A stretch of DNA of 64,000 nucleotides from an uncultured Planctomycetales bacterium (GTDB taxonomy: Bacteria; Planctomycetota; Planctomycetia; Pirellulales; S012-138): assembly GCA_937927735.1 (NCBI GenBank), contig CALBRZ010000046.1:1809-65808 (forward strand), in the 5' to 3' direction. Positions 34,325 through 55,106 of this stretch are shown piece after piece; the first letter of the stretch is position 1, and each line of letters starts with the position of its first letter. The notes beneath the pieces were generated by a model. It saw nothing but the letters and a program-made list of their open reading frames with translations. It was not told the DNA's origin and made no database searches. Made by a program: the position numbers and the translations under genes.

Positions 34325-34380
34325 CAAAAAAAACTCGCGTGAAGCACCCGATTGCGGACACTCCACGCGAGTTGATTTTT
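34325..34380 (-). terminator. intrinsic terminator downstream of the PVC-type heme-binding protein gene (bidirectional shape)
   Basis: 10-bp stem AACTCGCGTG / CACGCGAGTT (34332..34341 and 34364..34373), flanked by an A8 run (U8 on the minus strand) and by GATTTTT. Confidence 0.6.
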
Positions 34381-34402: not shown

Positions 34403-37400
34403 TTAGGGCTTAAGTGACCGCAGGTAGGCGATCAGGTGGGCCAGCTCTTCTTCGGTCATGGTCTTTTCCAGACCTTCCGGCATGACCGAGATGTTGCTGG
34501 GCTGCATCTCCTCGATATCGGCCCGGCGGATGCGGACTTCCGACCGATCAGCCGTACGGAGGTAGATCATGTCGGGCGTTTCGCGATGGATCACGCCCAC
34601 ATAGTTGTGACCGTCAGCCGTGAGGATGGAGTAGCTCTCGTACCCGCGGGCAAACGAGATGCTGGGGAACAGCACGGCTTCGAGCAGGTCGCGGCCAGTG
34701 CGGACTTCGCCGATCCGGCTGAGGTCGGGCCCGATGTTACCGCCCTCGTTCTCCGCCCGGTGGCACGCGGCACAGGCGGTCTTGTTGCTCTTGAAGATCG
34801 CCTTACCCAGCGCCGGGTTACCGCCAGCCAAACGCTGCTCGTAATAGGCCAGCTTGGCCAGTTGCTCTTCGCGTCCCACCTGCGACCGGGCGGCCAGCTT
34901 GCCGGCGGCCTCGCGAATGGCAGCGGGGAACTTACCCAGTGCCCGCTCCAGATCTTGTGGCCGCAGGCCGGACAGTCCCGGCGACTTCTCAAGCGAAGCC
35001 ACCACCAACCGCCCCAATTCCTCATCGCTGGAGTTGGCAAAGGCCGGCAGCAGCGTGGGCAGTTCCAGCGGACTGGCATCGGTCAACAGTTGGGCCAGTT
35101 GACGAAGCTGAGCCGGCGACAGCGAGGCATTGGCCACGGCCTGGGCAGCCGCCATGCGGTCCAGCGGCAACACGTCGTCGGCCAGCTGCGAAGCCAGCAG
35201 CTTGAACTCGGCATCGGTCAGCTTACTTCCCAGCCGGGCCGCGGCCACCAAGGCAGCCGCACGCAGCGAGCGAGCATGCTTGTCGTTGCCGGCGATTTCA
35301 CGCAGGCGATCGACATAGCCCGGCCACGAGGTCGCAGCCACCGTGGCCACCGCCTGCCGCAGCAAGGCGCCCTCGCTGTTCTTCAGCAGCGAGTCGAGTG
35401 CCTCGCGCCACGCGGCCGGCACCTGGCTACTGTCGTCGAACTCGCTCCGCGCGAGCACTTCGAGCATTAACTGCTTGTGCTCGGCGCTGCCGTCCTTGAG
35501 CCCTTGGATCACGACCTTCTGCACGGCCGGATCGTTCTTGAACGCCAGCAGCACGCCGCGAGCGGTGGCTGCCCGTTGGCCCAGCGGCTTGCCGTCGGTG
35601 AGCCAGCTTTGCATCAGGCCGACGATCTGTTGTCCCCAGCCCTCGTGGCGCGAAATCACCTCCAGCGCCGCGGCTTGCAGTTGCTCGTCCTCGGTATCCA
35701 GCAGCGAGCCCACGATCTCTTGCGTGAGATTGCCCGAGTCCATCTGGTCCAAGGCAATCAAGGCGCCACGACGCACGGCAGGGCTATCATCTTTAAGCCC
35801 CGCCAGCGTGGCTTCGCGGTTGTCAATTTCGATCAAGGCGTAAATCAGGGCGTGCTCCACGTGGCGGTCGACGCTATTGCGCAAACCGGCCAGCAGGTTC
35901 GGCACGGCCTGAACCGCGCGAAGTTGGCCCAGCGAAGCAGCCGCCATTGCCCGCACTTGCGGCAATTCGCCCTGCTGCCCATCGCTGGCGGCAGCCCGGG
36001 CAACCCAATCGCCCTTGGCCATCTTGCCCAGCGTGGTGATCGCCTGTTCGGCCAACGGGCCGCGCACGCCCATCACGCCCAAGCTGCGGGCGGCGGCTTG
36101 CCGCACGTCCTCGTGCGGATTGGTCAGGGCGAAAATGACGGCCGATTCGACCACGTCGCGCAGGGCCGGTTCCTTGATCCGCGAGAGCGTCCACACCGCG
36201 CGGCGACGCAGGTCGTGATTGTTCGACGTCTTAAGCTGCTCGGTCAGGGCGGCCACGGTGGCGTGGTCGGACTTGTCCACCAGTTCCTCGCGGGCCCGAT
36301 CGCGCACCGCCGGCCAGTTACTTGCCAGGAGTGCAACCAACTGCTCCGGCTTGAGCTGCTGCCAGGGAAGCTTGAGGCCGCGGGGATCGTCGACCGAACC
36401 GTCCAGTTCGCCGGCCGCATTCTTGGCCTGGGCCGCCTGTTGGCCGCGGTCGCCCACGTAACGAATCCGGTAAATGGCCCCGGCAATCTCCGGCTTGGCC
36501 ACCTGCGACGTGGGGCAGCCCAAGCGGAACCAACCACCGGTATCGATCACCAGCAGGCTGCCGTCGGCATCTTCCAGGACGTCGGTCGGGTGGAAGTCGG
36601 GATCGGTCGAAACCAGGAAGTCGTGATCCTCGCAGCGGAAGGTGGCGCCGTCGCGCGTGAGCACGTGCCGCAGCACCTTGTGCGTATTGAACTGCACGGA
36701 GAACAGGTTGTTCACGTACTCCGGACCGAACTGCTGGCCGCGATACCGGGTCAAGCCCGAGGGGGCCACCACGCCAAACTTGCTCAAAGCCGGCATCAGC
36801 GGCCCGGTGCGTTTGAACTCGGCCAGGCACGGATGAATCCGCGGGTACACACCGCCGTAGGCGTAATGCACCAAGGCGTCGTGACGTTCCTGGTCCGGAT
36901 TGTAGAACGTCATCGTGCCGAACATTTCGCCGGTGGGGCCGAACACGACTTCCACCGGGTTATCCATGCCGCCGCCGGCAAACACCTGCGGATCGCTACC
37001 ATCTTCGTTGATCGAGAACACTCGGGCGGCCAGGCCTTTGCTGGTGACCTTGCCGGTTTCGTCGGTGAACTCGTGACCGTGGCGGCCGTCGCACCAGTAG
37101 ATCCGCCCGTTGGGGCCGAGGAAGCAGCCGTGCACGTCGGCGGCATTGCCGATGTAGCCGAACTTGCCCACCAGGATCTCACGCTGATCGGCCACGCCGT
37201 CGCCGTCGGTATCTTTCAGCCGCCAGATGTACGGCGGGCTGGCGACGTACAGCGCCCCGCGATGCCAGAGGGCGCCCATGGGGAAGGTCATCTTGTCGGC
37301 AAAGACCGTGCTGCGGTCGAAGCGGCCATCGCCGTCGGTGTCTTCGAGCATGCGGATGCCGTTGGGAAGCTGCTGCTCGAGGTCGCCGGCGCGAAGATTC

Positions 37401-37654
37401 ATGCCGGCACTCTCGGCCACGAACAGCCGGCCGCGCTCGTCGAAGCCGGCCATCATCGGGTGGCGAACCAAGTCAGGACCGGCAGCGATGGTGACTTCAA
37501 AGCCCGGCGGAACCTGGAATGGCGGCCGCGTTACCTTGGCCTCGCCCTGAGGCTGATCGCCTTCCGCCGCCGCAGACGGCGACACCATCAGTCCGATTGT
37601 CAATAACAGGCAGCCCAGGCTGCGTCCCCAGTACGCTAAGAATTTTGACCGCAT
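34403..37654 (-). CDS. PVC-type heme-binding CxxCH protein (membrane-bound dehydrogenase-like beta-propeller, HEAT repeats, C-terminal cytochrome c)
   Basis: Signal peptide from ATG 37654 (alternative start 37693). N-terminal dehydrogenase-like region, long HEAT-like helical repeats, and a C-terminal CAACH with a downstream Met ligand region. Confidence 0.85.
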   Translation of the reverse strand: MRSKFLAYWGRSLGCLLLTIGLMVSPSAAAEGDQPQGEAKVTRPPFQVPPGFEVTIAAGPDLVRHPMMAGFDERGRLFVAESAGMNLRAGDLEQQLPNGIRMLEDTDGDGRFDRSTVFADKMTFPMGALWHRGALYVASPPYIWRLKDTDGDGVADQREILVGKFGYIGNAADVHGCFLGPNGRIYWCDGRHGHEFTDETGKVTSKGLAARVFSINEDGSDPQVFAGGGMDNPVEVVFGPTGEMFGTMTFYNPDQERHDALVHYAYGGVYPRIHPCLAEFKRTGPLMPALSKFGVVAPSGLTRYRGQQFGPEYVNNLFSVQFNTHKVLRHVLTRDGATFRCEDHDFLVSTDPDFHPTDVLEDADGSLLVIDTGGWFRLGCPTSQVAKPEIAGAIYRIRYVGDRGQQAAQAKNAAGELDGSVDDPRGLKLPWQQLKPEQLVALLASNWPAVRDRAREELVDKSDHATVAALTEQLKTSNNHDLRRRAVWTLSRIKEPALRDVVESAVIFALTNPHEDVRQAAARSLGVMGVRGPLAEQAITTLGKMAKGDWVARAAASDGQQGELPQVRAMAAASLGQLRAVQAVPNLLAGLRNSVDRHVEHALIYALIEIDNREATLAGLKDDSPAVRRGALIALDQMDSGNLTQEIVGSLLDTEDEQLQAAALEVISRHEGWGQQIVGLMQSWLTDGKPLGQRAATARGVLLAFKNDPAVQKVVIQGLKDGSAEHKQLMLEVLARSEFDDSSQVPAAWREALDSLLKNSEGALLRQAVATVAATSWPGYVDRLREIAGNDKHARSLRAAALVAAARLGSKLTDAEFKLLASQLADDVLPLDRMAAAQAVANASLSPAQLRQLAQLLTDASPLELPTLLPAFANSSDEELGRLVVASLEKSPGLSGLRPQDLERALGKFPAAIREAAGKLAARSQVGREEQLAKLAYYEQRLAGGNPALGKAIFKSNKTACAACHRAENEGGNIGPDLSRIGEVRTGRDLLEAVLFPSISFARGYESYSILTADGHNYVGVIHRETPDMIYLRTADRSEVRIRRADIEEMQPSNISVMPEGLEKTMTEEELAHLIAYLRSLKP

Positions 37655-38152
37655 TCCGATCCCAATCACCGCAGGCAACTCCAGTTGAAGCATCGGTGCG
37701 CCCTTGGTTCGACCACGCCGAACAACCAGCGTTTTTTGCCGTGCCTGGCGGCAACCGGCACGGCACGTTTGGGACGCTACGTTGCCGGCGAGCCAGGACC
37801 TACCACCCAGGGCACAGGTGTTTTGCGCGGCAAGCAGCCCCCCATCGGGTGAGTCGCCAGCCGCAACCAAGTAATGTACAGCTTATCTCCCGGGCGTACG
37901 ACCGCCAGCAATTAGCCGGCGTCTGCCAAGAAGCGGCATTTCCCTGAAGCCGCGGAACGCAACAATGGATCGAACGAACTACCCCGCCTGCCCGTACTGC
38001 CTGCAGGGCCCGATGACATCGGCCCGCCGCGCCCGCCAGCCTTCCCGGGGGCTTCCAACCACCTGCCAGCACTGCCGCGTTCCGCAAGGTAGCGTTGCAC
38101 TGGGAGCTTCCCCCGCCCAAGACCGTGTCCTGCCGTTAACTTCGGTTCAGCC

Positions 38153-49006: not shown

Positions 49007-50449
49007 ATGACGCCCTGCGATTCCCCCCAGCCGCTTCGCCGACCGCATCGGCTCATCGGAAACCTCTTAGCCATTGCTGCCTGGTTCGCCTGCGGCGGCC
49101 TCGCCTGGAATACGCCCGTCGTGGCCGACGAGGGCGGCAACCAGCGGCCCAACATCATCCTGATCATGGCCGACGACTTGGGCATCGAAGGGCTAAGCTG
49201 CTATGGCAGCCGCAGCTATCGCACGCCGAACCTGGATCGCCTGGCGGCATCGGGCTTGCGGTTTACCCATGCCTACTCGCAGCCGCTGTGCACGCCTACC
49301 CGGCTGCAAGTGATGACCGGCAAGTACAACCACCGCAATTGGATCTGCTTTGGCATCCTCGACCCGGCCGAAAAGACGTTCGGCCACCTGATGAGCGCGG
49401 CGGGCTACCGCACCTGCATCGCCGGCAAATGACAATTGCAGTCGTACGATCCGCCCGACTATCCCGGAGCCGCCAAGCGACGCGGTATCGGCATGCACCC
49501 CCGCGACGCCGGCTTTGATGAGTACTCGCTGTTTCACGCCCTGCACACCGAAGACAAGGGCTCGCGGTACGCCAACCCGACCTTCCTTCGCAACGGCACA
49601 CTGCACCGCGACGTGACCGGCAAGTACGGCGAGGACCTGAACGTGGATTTCATCGCCGACTTCATGCGGCGGCATCGCGATGAGCCGATGTTCATCTACT
49701 ACCCTATGGCGCTACCCCACTGGCCGATGGTGCCGACGCCGCGTTCGGCGGTTTGGGCGGATCCTGCACGTCGGCTGGAAGAAAGCACCGAGTACTTCCC
49801 CGACATGGTCGAGTACATGGACGAGCTCGTCGGCCGGTTGGTAGGCCACGTCGATGCCCTGGGCCTTCGGAAGCGGACGCTCATCTTGTTCTACAGCGAT
49901 AACGGCACCGACCGCCGCATCATTTCCAAGCTGGGTGACCAGCAAGTGACCGGCGGCAAGAACCAGCCCACGCAAAACGGCATCCGCGTGCCGCTGATTG
50001 CCTCGTGGCCGGGCAGAATCAAGCCGGGCACGTGCGACGACCTGGTCGATTCGTCCGACTTCCTGCCGACCATCGCCCAGGTGGCCGGCGTGACGATCCC
50101 CAGTTCCTGGCATGTCGACGGCCGCAGCTTCGCCGGCTCGATGCTCAAGGAGTTTCCGCACCAGCCGCGTGAGTGGTGTTTCTTCTGGTATGATCCGCGG
50201 CCCGGCTGGGACAAGGAGAAGCTCACGCGGCATATCTTCGCCTTGGATCACGATTACAAACTGTATAGCGACGGGCGGTTGTTCCGCATCACCGGGGTAG
50301 GGGTCGATGAAACGCCCGTGCCCGACGCCGCTTCGCCGGGTGCCGCCGCGGCACGCCGAAAACTGCAGCAGGTCATCGACCGCATGATGCAGCCGCCGCT
50401 CTCGCAGGCGGCCCTGACCGATGCCGCCGAGTTCGGAAAGCCCGAGTAG
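49007..50449 (+). pseudogene. formylglycine-type sulfatase interrupted by one in-frame TGA
   Basis: The track ORFs 49007..49432 and 49436..50449 are in the same frame. Sulfatase motifs are [12 protein letters not shown] and the FGly site [17 protein letters not shown] at 49430..49432 sits where the conserved GKW(H/Q)L Trp codon (TGG) is expected (IAGK*QLQ). Confidence 0.8.
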
Positions 50450-51656: not shown

Positions 51657-52694
51657 TTACGCCATGGCCGTGGCGGTGCTGCCCAGCGTGCGGCCAACGG
51701 CGTCGGCCACGCGGCGGGCAGTTTCCATGGCCGCGGCGAACTGCTCGAAGTTCAGCGATTGGTAACCGTCGCTCAGGGCCGTTTCCGGCGTCGGATGCAC
51801 TTCGATGATCAAGCCGTCGGCCCCGGCGGCCACGCTGGCGGCGATCATGTCGGGGATCAGGTAGGTATGGCCGGTGCCGTGGCTGGGATCGACCACCACC
51901 GGCAGGTGCGTCTTGGCGTGCAGGTACGGCACCGAAGCCAGCGGCAGCGTGAACCGCGTGTGCGACTCGTAGGTGCGGATGCCGCGTTCGCACAGCATCA
52001 CGTTGGGATTGCCGGCATCGAGAATGTACTCGGCGGCCAGCAGCAATTCGTCCATGGTGGCGCTGGGACCGCGTTTCAGCAGCACCGGGCGCCGCGTCTC
52101 GCCTACGGCCGCCAGCAACCGGTAGTTCTGCATGTTCCGGGCACCGATCTGCAGCACGTCGGCGTACTCGGCCACCAGCTCCACGTCCTCACTGGCGACC
52201 ACTTCGGTGACGACGGCCAGGCCGGTCGCCTCGCGAGCCGCGGCCAGCAGCTTCAGGCCTTCTTCCTTCAACCCCTGGAAGCTGTAGGGGCTGGTGCGAG
52301 GCTTGAAGGCGCCGCCCCGCAAGGCCGTGGCACCGGCGGCCCGCACCGCCTCGGCCGTGGCCAGAAGCTGTTCTTCGTTCTCGACCGAACAGGGGCCGGC
52401 GATCACGCCCACCCGGCCGCCGCCCACCGTCAGGCTGCCGGCGGTAATCACGGTCGGCTCGGACTTGACCTCACGGCTGGCCACCTTGTAGGGCGCCAGG
52501 ATCGGCATCACTTGGGCGACGCCGGGGCAGTTCTCCAGCGCTTCCTTATAGGCTTCGCGCTTCTCGCCAATCGCCGCAACAACCGTCCGCTCCGTGCCCT
52601 CGATCACGTGCGGCTTCAGCCCGAAGCTCGCCACGCGCTCGACCACATGCTTGATTTCTTCCTTCGAGGCACCTTTGTTCATCACGACGATCAT
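51657..52694 (-). CDS. aroF: 3-deoxy-7-phosphoheptulonate (DAHP) synthase, type I-beta with N-terminal ferredoxin-like regulatory domain
   Basis: ATG 52694 preceded by AGGAG. An N-terminal domain of about 70 aa ([21 protein letters not shown]...) precedes the core [15 protein letters not shown]...[16 protein letters not shown]. The track start 52796 is a TTG extension. Confidence 0.92.
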
Positions 52695-52819
52695 GGAGTG
52701 AGGCTCCTGGTGGCAGGGCAGGGGGGCGATCGGCGAGCCGAGACTACGGGGCAGGCGCCGGCGATCCTGCGGCGGGGATGTTACGGTGATGCTCAATGGA
52801 AAATCTCTGCAACTGCAAC

Positions 52820-52856
52820 AAAAAAAGCCCCGAGGTCCTTTTCCGGGCCTCGGGGC
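52820..52856 (-). terminator. intrinsic terminator 126 nt upstream of aroF (candidate attenuator terminator)
   Basis: Minus-strand GCCCCGAGG (52856..52848) pairs with CCUCGGGGC (52835..52827) as a 9-bp GC-rich stem. Seven U follow immediately (52826..52820). Confidence 0.75.
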
Positions 52857-52885
52857 TATGGTTTGCGTTTATGCAGGAGGCAGAC

Positions 52886-52957
52886 TTAGCGACCTCCTCC
52901 AAGCCCGGGGCCAGGAGGGCTAAAGTAAAACCAGTAATAGGTCGCAAAGGTTGCCAT
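52886..52957 (-). CDS. candidate aromatic-rich leader peptide (23 aa, MATFATYYWFYFSPPGPGLGGGR)
   Basis: ATG 52957..52955 and TAA 52888..52886. Codons 7-12 are TAT TAC TGG TTT TAC TTT. The ORF ends 30 nt upstream of the terminator hairpin that precedes aroF. Confidence 0.5.
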   Translation of the reverse strand: MATFATYYWFYFSPPGPGLGGGR

Positions 52958-52963
52958 GCTTCG

Positions 52964-52992
52964 ATTCTGCGCTTCACACGGCGGCGATTCAA
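52964..52992 (-). promoter_or_regulatory. sigma-70-like promoter candidate TTGAAT-N17-CAGAAT for the leader transcript
   Basis: -35 TTGAAT at 52992..52987 and -10 CAGAAT at 52969..52964. The predicted start falls at or next to the leader AUG, giving a leaderless or near-leaderless transcript. Confidence 0.3.
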
Positions 52993-53068
52993 GAGCGAAG
53001 TTTTGCTTTTTCCGCGGCTTGTCCTGGTGCAGTCGCCCCGTCCGCCTGCCGGTCGACACTGCCAGCGT

Positions 53069-53236
53069 TCAATCGCACCGGCTGCAAGAGTGAACCGTAA
53101 AGCAGGTGTCACACAGGTGGAACACCAGTTGCACCCAGCGGTTGAAGCTGCCGTTGCTCTGGTTGACCGTCTCCAGCGTTTCAATCATCGGCAAACCGAC
53201 CGGCGGATCATTGCAGACCGCCGCTAGAATCTTCAT
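53069..53236 (-). CDS. hypothetical small Cys-rich protein (55 aa, C-terminal CxxC-x5-CxxC)
   Basis: The ORF reads MKILAAVCNDPPVGLPMIETLETVNQSNGSFNRWVQLVFHLCDTCFTVHSCSRCD. Third codon positions are mostly G/C, like the neighbouring genes. No family recognised. An alternative start at the internal ATG (MIETL) is possible. Confidence 0.4.
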   Translation of the reverse strand: MKILAAVCNDPPVGLPMIETLETVNQSNGSFNRWVQLVFHLCDTCFTVHSCSRCD

Positions 53237-53395
53237 CAGCACCCGAGGTTTCTCCCCCGCGGAGCGAGGGCAGGCCGGGAAGGGTGGTTCCTGCGTTCCT
53301 GCTTTCGCTAGCCGCGGATCGCCGCAATTCAACTGCCAGATGCGCAATAGCGGCTGATGGCAACTGCAACCTGATCGAGCACCGCGGGCGGAAGT

Positions 53396-53920
53396 TCAGA
53401 CGTGCTTGATCCGCCGCACCACCACGTAGATGGCCGCCACAGTAAACAGAACGCCAAAGTAGGCGCGCGTCACGCCACCCTCAAAGACCATCGTGGCGTT
53501 GAACGCCATGAACAGAAAAAACGCAACCCAGGCCAGCCGGATCGCCGGGGCGCGCAGCATGGCCAGCCAGCGGGGGCGTCCCACGTCGGCGCGCTGAGCC
53601 AGTCGCAGATCCACGCCCCACAATACTACGTCGGCCAGCCAGACCAGGGTAAAGCCGTAATTGATCCAGATCCCAATGCCGGTGGCGACGCCTACCACTT
53701 CGTACGTCCGCTTGACGGCGTGTTCGAACGCTTCGGCGTGGCTCCAATGGTGGACGAAGTGAAACGCGGCCGCCACGTGCAGCAGGTATGCGCCTGCCGC
53801 GGCCGTCCAGAGCCGCCAGGCCAGCATCGACCATTCGCCGCGGGGCGCCAGCCGCAGGGCCAGCGCCGGCAATGCCAGGGTCAAGGCAACATCGGCCGTA
53901 ATCCGCGTGGGGTCCAGCAT
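53396..53920 (-). CDS. hypothetical polytopic membrane protein
   Basis: 174 aa from ATG 53920 (the track start 53950 is a TTG). Five hydrophobic helices and a His-rich motif HVAAAFHFVHHWSH. Confidence 0.7.
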   Translation of the reverse strand: MLDPTRITADVALTLALPALALRLAPRGEWSMLAWRLWTAAAGAYLLHVAAAFHFVHHWSHAEAFEHAVKRTYEVVGVATGIGIWINYGFTLVWLADVVLWGVDLRLAQRADVGRPRWLAMLRAPAIRLAWVAFFLFMAFNATMVFEGGVTRAYFGVLFTVAAIYVVVRRIKHV

Positions 53921-53972
53921 GTTCACGTTCACCCAAGAACCGCCTGCCAAACCCGCGCGGCGGTGTTCGTCG

Positions 53973-55106
53973 TTACGTCAACCGAGGATGGGGGCCCGCG
54001 TCCTTCAGTTCGGCTACCATCTGCTGGGCCAGGTTGTGATAGTCCTCCAGGACCTGGATGCCCAGGCGATAAGTTAAGAGATACCCCAGCGATCCGGCAA
54101 CCAGTTGCCCCACGATCGGGAACCACTTGGCGACGGTCTTACCGGCTTCGCGCTTGGCGAACTGCCGCATGACGCCTTCCACGGCGATTGGCGTCCCGTA
54201 CTTGGCCGCCAGCGCCGCCGCCCGCCCGGCGATGGCCTTGGTCTTGAGCGAGGCCAGGTCGACCGACGGCGGTTGGTGCAGATGGTACAGATCCTGGATC
54301 TTGTGGATCATGGCCAGCAGGATGCCCAGGTCGACCGAGACATCCAGCCCCGGGATCGGGTTCATGCCGTTGGCCGCGGCCGCCAGCGCATGCCAGTGCA
54401 CCATGTGGCGACCAACACGCAGCTTTCGCTCCAGCCCCTCGGGCGTCCAGGCGGCCAAGGCGGCTTCGACACGTTCGCGTTTCATGCCTTCCAGGCAGTC
54501 GCAAACGTCTTCCAGCAGCCGCGGCAGATCGTACCGGGCAGGGTACCGCGAAGAAACCAGGTACAGCTTCTTAAGCCCATCGTCGCCGAGATAAATTCGC
54601 AGGTTGTCTTCGATCTTGGCGCGGACTTCGACTTCGGTGAGGCCGTGATCGAGCTGCCCGTCGAGCACCGCCAGATCGAACTTGGTGCGGACGATGAAGT
54701 ACGGCACCTTTAACTCGTGGATGATCTGCTCCAGCAGCGCGGCGTCATCCTCAAACCAGCGGTCGGTTACGACCAGGATGAGCGCGTCGTACGTGTCCAG
54801 CCGCATCGTGCCGGCGTAGTCCTTGGCCGGGAACGTGGGCGTGCCGCAGCCCGGCAAGTCGACCAGGACCAGCCCGTTGTATTCGAACTCCTCAGGCTCC
54901 ATCGTCGTCTCGACCACGCCCACCTGGGCCAGCTTCTCGCCGACCATGGCGTTGATCAACGACGATTTTCCGGTGCCGCTGCGGCCGATGATGCCCACCC
55001 GTACCCGCGTCTGTTCGAAGGCCAACTGCTGCTGCGCGGCCTCCTTGATGTACGCGTCCAACGACTTGGGCTGGGGTACGTTGCGCGAGGGGAGCGAATC
55101 AATCAT
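53973..55106 (-). CDS. P-loop GTPase with C-terminal DUF697-like helical/membrane-associated region
   Basis: G1 GRSGTGKSS, G3 DLPGCG, G4 RTKFD. The C-terminal region (NPIPGLDVSVDLGILLAMIHKI...WFPIVGQLVAGSLGYLLTYRLG) resembles DUF697. Confidence 0.8.
   Translation of the reverse strand: MIDSLPSRNVPQPKSLDAYIKEAAQQQLAFEQTRVRVGIIGRSGTGKSSLINAMVGEKLAQVGVVETTMEPEEFEYNGLVLVDLPGCGTPTFPAKDYAGTMRLDTYDALILVVTDRWFEDDAALLEQIIHELKVPYFIVRTKFDLAVLDGQLDHGLTEVEVRAKIEDNLRIYLGDDGLKKLYLVSSRYPARYDLPRLLEDVCDCLEGMKRERVEAALAAWTPEGLERKLRVGRHMVHWHALAAAANGMNPIPGLDVSVDLGILLAMIHKIQDLYHLHQPPSVDLASLKTKAIAGRAAALAAKYGTPIAVEGVMRQFAKREAGKTVAKWFPIVGQLVAGSLGYLLTYRLGIQVLEDYHNLAQQMVAELKDAGPHPRLT

Follow-up and report, generated by a model that had tools for sequence, protein, structure and literature searches.

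We have examined a 64,000-nucleotide (64-kb; 64% GC) stretch of contig CALBRZ010000046.1 from an uncultured Planctomycetales bacterium, hereafter called the window. Its minus strand carries the gene for a type I-beta 3-deoxy-D-arabino-heptulosonate 7-phosphate (DAHP) synthase, assigned from homology and from matches to the Pfam families DAHP_snth_FXD (PF18152; 4.9e-24) and DAHP_synth_1 (PF00793; 3.6e-75). Upstream of this gene lie a promoter-like element, a short open reading frame (ORF) rich in aromatic codons and an intrinsic terminator (Table 1). Together they very probably constitute an attenuator of the leader-peptide type, in which the ribosome governs transcription into the DAHP synthase gene. 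The case is made in silico, from the conservation of the leader among relatives, the selection evident on its codons and its RNA, and the alternative folds available to the transcript.

The leader ORF runs from an ATG at 52957, 263 nucleotides (nt) upstream of the DAHP synthase ATG, to a TAA at 52888..52886. Direct reading of the minus strand confirmed the elements that a first-pass annotation had described: a 23-codon ORF in which codons 7–12 read TAT TAC TGG TTT TAC TTT, a TTGAAT-N17-CAGAAT element spanning 52992..52964, and a 9-bp stem (52856..52848 with 52835..52827) followed by U7. The one coordinate to be revised is the gap from stop codon to hairpin, which is about 28–29 nt and not 30 nt.

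The terminator stem extends to 10 bp with the pair A52857–U52826, the U being the first of the tract. Inner pairs between 52846-45 and 52838-37 add two more, and the hairpin has an energy of -24.8 kcal/mol. Runs of seven or more T number only three on both strands of the window together. A consensus terminator scan overlooked this terminator because its loop limit was 8 nt, and the hairpin was checked by folding instead. Canonical hairpin and U-tract terminators serve gene ends in this organism. One hairpin followed by T8 (-26.9 kcal/mol; 34333-34380, minus strand) is found some 20 nt past the end of a 1155-residue ORF (34403..37870); considered as a further attenuator, it was rejected as an ordinary gene-end terminator.

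The position of the promoter-like element is conserved. In 16 of 38 planctomycete leaders the pattern TTGnnn-N16-18-nAnnnT ends either 6 nt (nine loci) or 7 nt (seven loci) before the leader ATG; in a positional scan of 181 offsets, any other offset is occupied in at most two loci. With the promoter, which resembles the sigma-70 type, fixed so close to the ATG, we infer that the transcript starts at or beside A52957. The leader would then be an independent transcription unit, its peptide probably being translated from the 5'-terminal AUG of a leaderless mRNA.

Table 1. Features of the leader region and of the DAHP synthase gene (window coordinates; MFE, minimum free energy).
Feature	Coordinates	Strand	Basis
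-35-like hexamer TTGAAT	52987..52992	-	Sequence; TTGnnn at the same position in related leaders
-10-like hexamer CAGAAT, ending 6 nt before the leader ATG	52964..52969	-	Sequence; positional scan
Leader ORF, 23 codons and TAA, MATFATYYWFYFSPPGPGLGGGR	52886..52957	-	Sequence; homologous or analogous ORFs upstream of DAHP synthase in relatives
Possible region 1, GCGACCU, pairing with AGGUCGC (52895..52889); anti-antiterminator or pause helix, a weak part of the model	52939..52945	-	MFE fold
Regulatory run UAU UAC UGG UUU UAC UUU (Tyr Tyr Trp Phe Tyr Phe), codons 7-12, proposed stall site	52922..52939	-	
Match to covariance model R1, from the end of the aromatic run to the U tract	52820..52936	-	92.4 bits, E = 9e-25; sole full-length match in the window
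Region 2, putative antiterminator 5' strand UCCUGGCCCCGGGCUUGGAGGAGGU, inside the leader ORF, coding for the PPGPGLGGG tail	52892..52916	-	Constrained folds; covariation
Helper helix GCCUCCU, pairing with AGGAGGU (52898..52892) and stacking on the antiterminator	52875..52881	-	Stalled-ribosome folds
Region 3, terminator 5' arm (52857..52848, AGCCCCGAGG) with flanks; partner is region 2 or the 3' arm	52842..52861	-	Folds; covariation
Terminator 3' arm CCUCGGGGCU	52826..52835	-	10-bp stem; covariation
U7 tract of the intrinsic terminator	52820..52826	-	One of the long T runs of the window
Shine–Dalgarno sequence AGGAG of DAHP synthase, 9 nt before the ATG at 52694	52704..52708	-	Sequence
Type I-beta DAHP synthase, N-terminal ferredoxin-like domain, 345 residues	51657..52694	-	Pfam; homology

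Conservation of the leader

Relatives of the enzyme were taken from a scan of one genome per species, which yielded 80 loci. The 80 proteins align from residue 1 with identities of about 54–79%; they come mainly from Planctomycetota (60–79%), with others from further phyla (54–59%). Over the 400 nt upstream of each gene, 36 of 77 loci carry a short ORF with at least five aromatic codons in seven on the sense strand, compared with two of 77 on the reverse complement and six of 1540 shuffled sequences. On both strands of the window the leader is the sole ORF of this kind, and the run of six aromatic codons is the only one, which exceeds what chance would produce. Runs of four or five aromatic codons in some frame are found at about 1108 and 2668 (minus strand) and at 50180 (plus strand), none of them in a short ORF.

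Equivalent leader ORFs were recognized in about 45 related loci. In about 40 loci the leader stop codon lies 49–70 nt before a T-run that is itself preceded by a GC-rich hairpin. At least 36 other species-level genomes, the majority of them from Planctomycetota, have this layout before DAHP synthase. One carrier in culture is Roseimaritima sediminicola JC651 (locus L010), with a leader that begins MSTRFWYDWRF, a 12-bp stem and T9. A covariance model, R1, built from a seed of 21 leaders, retrieves 36 full-length sense copies with E <= 1.4e-7, 16 of these being new relative to the seed. Almost every copy ends immediately 5' of the gene; antisense matches cover the palindromic hairpin alone. The expectation that the upstream ORF and the terminator would be kept together before DAHP synthase in relatives was borne out by these copies.

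None of the seven flanking ORFs of the window was found by tblastn near a relative at any of the loci, which indicates that the element travels with DAHP synthase. The single match obtained was an artefact, an antisense ORF that overlaps the conserved leader. Strain-level copies of the window in metagenomes have an identical intergenic region and add no variation.

Aromatic-run leaders also precede the enzyme in other phyla, namely in Geomonas, Thermodesulfovibrio, Calditrichota, Acidobacteria, Ignavibacteriales and Anaerolineae, and these distant leaders have only the aromatic run in common. At three loci of Anaerolineae and Ignavibacteriales (L065:1587-1973, L076:2630-3004 and L080:2614-2988) there is a gene for a type I chorismate mutase (Pfam CM_1, E 1e-40 to 1e-45), and the order is aromatic leader and terminator, then aroH, then DAHP synthase, in an operon.

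The pattern of substitution within the run is informative. Among the relatives only the first codon position (T) is conserved, at 0.91, the second and third positions scoring 0.56 and 0.57. Of 274 in-frame codons beginning with T, 264 are aromatic; the leucine codons TTA and TTG are absent and cysteine occurs once, although both are plentiful in the other two frames. Phe, Tyr and Trp codons occur in the ratio 128:78:58, all three amino acids being represented in 32 of 43 leaders, and their order within the run is free. The selected trait of the run is a codon class, namely any aromatic codon.

The tail of the peptide, PGRGAGG in relatives, behaves differently from the run. Its third codon positions are as well conserved (0.77–0.80) as the first two (0.73–0.86), so that selection appears to act here on the RNA and not on the protein. 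The spacer that follows the stop codon is unconstrained, with an identity of 0.45.

Alternative folds of the leader RNA

The 156-nt leader folds with z = -4.4 relative to dinucleotide shuffles. In an alignment of 22 sequences, 94% of the cells of the terminator stem are paired and seven of its ten pairs show compensatory changes, of the kind that the first-pass annotation had proposed to look for in both helices. The consensus of region 2, GGTCGCGGGGCCGGAGG, imitates the terminator 3' arm and can therefore pair with the 5' arm. Aligned as an antiterminator, 75% of the cells are paired, the best register is at slide 0, and there are 14 double-change cells compared with 7.7 +/- 2.1. Duplexes between a region 2 and its own partner average -17.9 kcal/mol and those with swapped partners -14.8 kcal/mol, a difference that none of 5000 permutations reaches. 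Where the class of the arm changes (GCCCCGAGACC, GGCCCTGAAATCC, ACCTCAAGGCC), matching changes accompany it in region 2.

Because region 2 resembles the 3' arm in sequence and varies in concert with the 5' arm, we assign it as the putative antiterminator. The upstream strand that the first-pass annotation had named for this role was correctly placed; its extent was underestimated, as the strand is longer (52916..52892) and pairs with 52857..52842 together with 52881..52875, not only with 52850..52843.

Constrained folds of the window sequence gave the two outcomes predicted when ribosome-occluded segments are masked. A ribosome stalled on the aromatic codons leaves region 2 paired with GCCUCCU and with 52861..52842 (-28 to -35 kcal/mol), whereas one placed at the stop codon allows the terminator alone to form. 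Over 45 leaders, sequestration of the terminator 5' arm is 0.76 for the stalled ribosome, 0.22 for the ribosome at the stop codon and 0.51 for shuffles (mean z -2.6). For a transcript that begins at the AUG, the helix between GCGACCU and AGGUCGC is iso-energetic with the antiterminator (-41.2 versus -41.1 kcal/mol).

Proposed mechanism

We propose the following model. Transcription would begin at the sigma-70-type promoter, at or beside the leader AUG, with translation probably leaderless, and the six consecutive Tyr, Trp and Phe codons would serve as the sensor. When charged tRNA-Phe, tRNA-Tyr or tRNA-Trp is scarce, a ribosome would stall on the run and leave region 2 free to pair with 52881..52875 and with the 5' arm; the terminator would be blocked and polymerase would read through into DAHP synthase. 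Given an ample supply of all three charged tRNAs, the ribosome would reach the UAA, unwinding and occupying region 2, so that the 5' arm would pair with 52835..52826 and transcription would stop at U7, giving a predicted RNA of about 138 nt. The choice between the two helices would be a kinetic competition.

The features that define the leader-peptide class are present: a leader ORF, a cluster of codons for the pathway's own products, an intrinsic terminator, and a putative antiterminator that would exclude it according to the position of the ribosome. As far as sequence can show, the leader agrees with the class throughout, save for a conserved helix between regions 1 and 2. The first-pass reading of the locus as attenuation of the trpL/pheL type has gained in silico support from the relatives, from covariation and from the position of the promoter.

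Several observations weigh against this model. Our first treatment of the ribosome masked all RNA 5' of it, which was too generous; when the calculation was rerun with a 28-nt footprint and helices could bridge the ribosome at the stop codon, sequestration dropped only from 0.76 to 0.60, a value still significantly different from that of the stalled state (Wilcoxon p = 3e-4). Covariation of the antiterminator is no more than moderate when assessed column by column. The full-length RNA favours the terminator thermodynamically even with a stalled ribosome, and the antiterminator would therefore have to act kinetically. Folds of related leaders do not conserve the 1:2 anti-antiterminator helix. 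Without a ribosome most leaders adopt the antiterminator (0.64–0.69), unlike E. coli trp, which suggests read-through as the default state and hence a default-ON design. Kinship among the sequences inflates the shuffle-based statistics, and about 13 planctomycete loci lack the element.

Alternative explanations

The alternative that survives best, although we consider it unlikely, is that the attenuator senses general translation capacity instead of the supply of charged aromatic tRNAs, through transcription–translation coupling of the pyrBI type or through pausing dependent on elongation factor P (EF-P), or that termination depends on Rho or on another factor. Most leaders fold by default into the antiterminator in the absence of a ribosome, and any failure of translation would then bring about read-through. 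Pro-Pro-Gly is a strong EF-P-dependent pause motif, and the leader tail encodes it (CCU CCU GGC, 52918..52910, minus strand) exactly on the antiterminator strand, an arrangement shared by four related leaders (L002, L003, L009 and L023, which contain S-P-P-G). The motif may be no more than a consequence of the sequence that the RNA pairing requires; alternatively, it may keep the ribosome on region 2. Pro-Pro-Gly is, however, confined to a minority of leaders, whereas the aromatic run is the one universal feature of all of them, other phyla included, and is selected as a codon class. The regulated genes encode DAHP synthase and chorismate mutase, and a canonical hairpin with U7 needs no Rho.

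A leader that binds a ligand, a tRNA or a protein (a riboswitch, a T-box or a TRAP-like system), with the ORF irrelevant, is very improbable. The finding that other planctomycete lineages carry an extra structured RNA before the same gene (see below) shows that RNA control other than the codon run exists there, but that element is absent from the window, and no Rfam family, the T-box included, was matched in the region 52400..53500 at E <= 10 or reached its gathering score in 35 related loci. Outside the alternative helices the spacer is unconserved, and such a leader would not account for the conservation of aromatic codons in one frame only.

We regard as similarly improbable that the ORF encodes a functional aromatic-rich micropeptide, acting at the membrane or in signalling and co-transcribed with DAHP synthase, with the hairpin incidental or a stabilizer. 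Many relatives do keep a recognizable tail, S/T-P-x-G-R-G-x-G-G. This tail, however, is complementary to the terminator 5' arm and co-varies with it, and the equal conservation of its third codon positions points to RNA-level selection; neither the free order of Phe, Tyr and Trp nor the lack of anything but the run in distant leaders fits a functional peptide.

Finally, that a chance ORF lies beside the ordinary 3'-end terminator of an upstream minus-strand gene (53069..53347 or the GTPase gene 53973..55106), unlinked to DAHP synthase, is scarcely credible and already contradicted: the upstream ORFs do lie on the same strand, are predicted by gene callers on this organism's metagenome contigs and have a stop codon (at 53069) 210 nt before the terminator, but a positionally conserved promoter separates them from the leader, the upstream gene has a terminator-like site of its own (53545..53516), the flanking genes differ at every related locus while the ORF and terminator stay with DAHP synthase, and the aromatic-codon enrichment is far above chance. 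The leader-peptide attenuator remains the reading that we prefer.

Variant leaders, a second structured RNA and flanking genes

Some loci depart from the usual layout. In Geomonas propionica (L060:2757-2843) and Thermodesulfovibrio (L072:2771-2860), aromatic-rich leader ORFs (MINTGYFTFTNFYFWYGFYF... and MRKFAVNNFNFNWWWSFFF..., respectively) have no clear hairpin and T-run at the usual distance, and may be translational rather than transcriptional attenuators. A locus of Anaerolineales (L067:1617-1739) gives a weak R1 match (21 bits, E 6e-4) with a Tyr-Tyr-Tyr-Phe run about 1.3 kb 5' of DAHP synthase; this may be a leader that heads a longer operon. At L020:2568-2870 a gene for a 23S-rRNA-intervening-sequence protein (PF05635, E 6e-29) is placed between the terminator and DAHP synthase, the gap being 507 nt.

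A second, unclassified structured RNA with a core of about 190 nt lies 5' of DAHP synthase in 13 loci. In three of these it stands alone with its own terminator (L032:2650-2885, L038:2635-2870 and L042:2688-2927); in the other ten, from Gemmatales, Isosphaeraceae and others, it is in tandem before the aromatic leader (L030, L041, L043, L045-L049, L052 and L054; about 2380-2740). Compensatory changes keep 23 of its 41 predicted pairs. It has a single-stranded AAAGGAGGUGAUC stretch and a conserved mini-ORF of 10–12 codons, M-[CS]-[SN]-x-[ND]-Q-x-[RW]-L-x, in which insertions and deletions are multiples of three. Compared with Rfam, the second RNA matched no family, the T-box again included. Of nine metagenome copies with enough downstream sequence, seven precede DAHP synthase. 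The element does not occur in the 64-kb window. It is possibly more novel than the aromatic attenuator itself.

Upstream of the leader, the minus-strand ORFs 53069-53347 (92 residues) and 53396-53950 (174–184 residues) have no Pfam match. The C-terminal end of the 92-residue ORF is rich in cysteine (CDTCFTVHSCSRCD). The upstream terminator-like site, a hairpin with T6, falls inside the larger of the two ORFs, which casts doubt on that gene call. Beyond them, 53973-55106 (minus strand) encodes a 377-residue GTPase with a best Pfam match to IIGP (PF05049, interferon-inducible GTPase; E 9.5e-33), an unusual assignment for a bacterium.

Implications

In a broader reading, the window leader would be the first representative of an RNA family that spans the phylum and has no curated entry. 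This would be a leaderless attenuator with mixed Phe, Tyr and Trp codons acting on a ferredoxin-domain type I-beta DAHP synthase, two-state and default-ON without an anti-antiterminator, with analogues in Desulfobacterota, Nitrospirota, Chloroflexota, Bacteroidota (Ignavibacteriales), Calditrichota and Acidobacteriota, and forming a composite with the second RNA in Gemmatales and Isosphaeraceae. We hold this joint reading tentatively, as possible rather than probable. If it is true, Planctomycetota would gain their first defined class of cis-regulatory attenuators; were the default-ON part true, termination would occur only when an unimpeded ribosome actively disrupts the antiterminator.

Regulation in Planctomycetota is almost uncharted, and the leader offers a concrete regulatory unit, conserved in at least 36 species-level genomes, before a gene that is central to biosynthesis. 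The entry enzyme of the aromatic pathway would be under two controls, its allosteric N-terminal domain and a transcriptional sensor of all three charged aromatic tRNAs. The locus also yields a promoter and terminator model for the phylum and a small ORF missed by gene callers; the seed alignment and covariance model are fit for a new Rfam family, and the leader may serve as a natural aromatic-amino-acid-responsive part for engineering. As leader-peptide attenuation is a textbook mechanism, the finding contributes breadth and annotation and no new principle.

Comparison with known systems

The Rfam leader families (Trp, Phe, His, Leu, Thr and others) gave no match in 52400..53500 at E <= 10, nor did the T-box (RF00230: stem I with specifier loop and antiterminator) in this region at the same threshold. 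No family reached its gathering score in the related loci (20 + 15 = 35). Weak matches to small RNA and microRNA families were discarded, as they reflect the terminator hairpin only. For Planctomycetota, a literature search found no account of attenuation, of leaderless mRNAs or of transcription starts that had been mapped, in agreement with the first-pass annotation, which knew of no description of leader-peptide attenuation there; a prior mention in a broad Russian-language survey of attenuation (Lopatovskaya et al. 2010) is not excluded.

In its logic the proposed element would resemble trpL and pheL of E. coli, as described by the Yanofsky model. Common to both would be a leader ORF with regulatory codons in tandem, antiterminator and terminator helices that exclude each other, an intrinsic terminator before the structural gene and the ribosome as sensor of charged tRNA. 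The E. coli leaders each respond to one amino acid, have an ORF led by a Shine–Dalgarno sequence and possess a conserved 1:2 pause or anti-antiterminator helix that brings about termination when the leader is untranslated. Here, by contrast, the ORF is apparently leaderless, region 2 lies within the ORF, the 1:2 helix is not conserved and the Rfam Trp and Phe models are unmatched.

Leader-peptide control of DAHP synthase is not new as such, being known for aroR-aroF of Corynebacterium glutamicum and predicted in Acholeplasma, the two nearest precedents. AroF of C. glutamicum is a type I-alpha enzyme, whereas that of the window is of type I-beta with a ferredoxin-like domain. The aroR leader contains Phe-Tyr-Phe and reportedly responds to Phe and not to Tyr (Neshat et al. 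2014, summarised in PMC11802643; first predicted in PMC4046766). The likeness is functional and drawn from that description: a short aromatic-codon leader ORF precedes DAHP synthase, and stalling raises transcription. The triplet described for aroR contrasts with the six consecutive codons for Phe, Tyr and Trp found here, in another phylum. The predicted upstream ORF uORFC-13-1, confined to Acholeplasma and environmental sequences, lies by an intrinsic terminator exclusively before aroF and is proposed to sense the incorporation of Phe (PMC8632094). By its description it matches the present leader in having an upstream ORF and an intrinsic terminator before a DAHP synthase gene; that motif, which is computational, codes for at least one Phe, whereas the leader in the window has a mixed aromatic run.

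Leaderless attenuation leader peptides that lack a Shine–Dalgarno sequence are known from Deinococcus deserti and from Actinobacteria including mycobacteria (PMC4007540; bioRxiv 10.1101/834739). Their 5'-terminal AUG follows from starts mapped experimentally, while leaderlessness is suggested here by promoter geometry, and the phyla and target genes differ. A further parallel is rnTrpL of Sinorhizobium meliloti, an attenuator whose terminated leader RNA is released as a discrete small RNA with a demonstrated role in trans (PMC6614838). The attenuator proposed here would likewise release a terminated leader RNA, the species predicted above.

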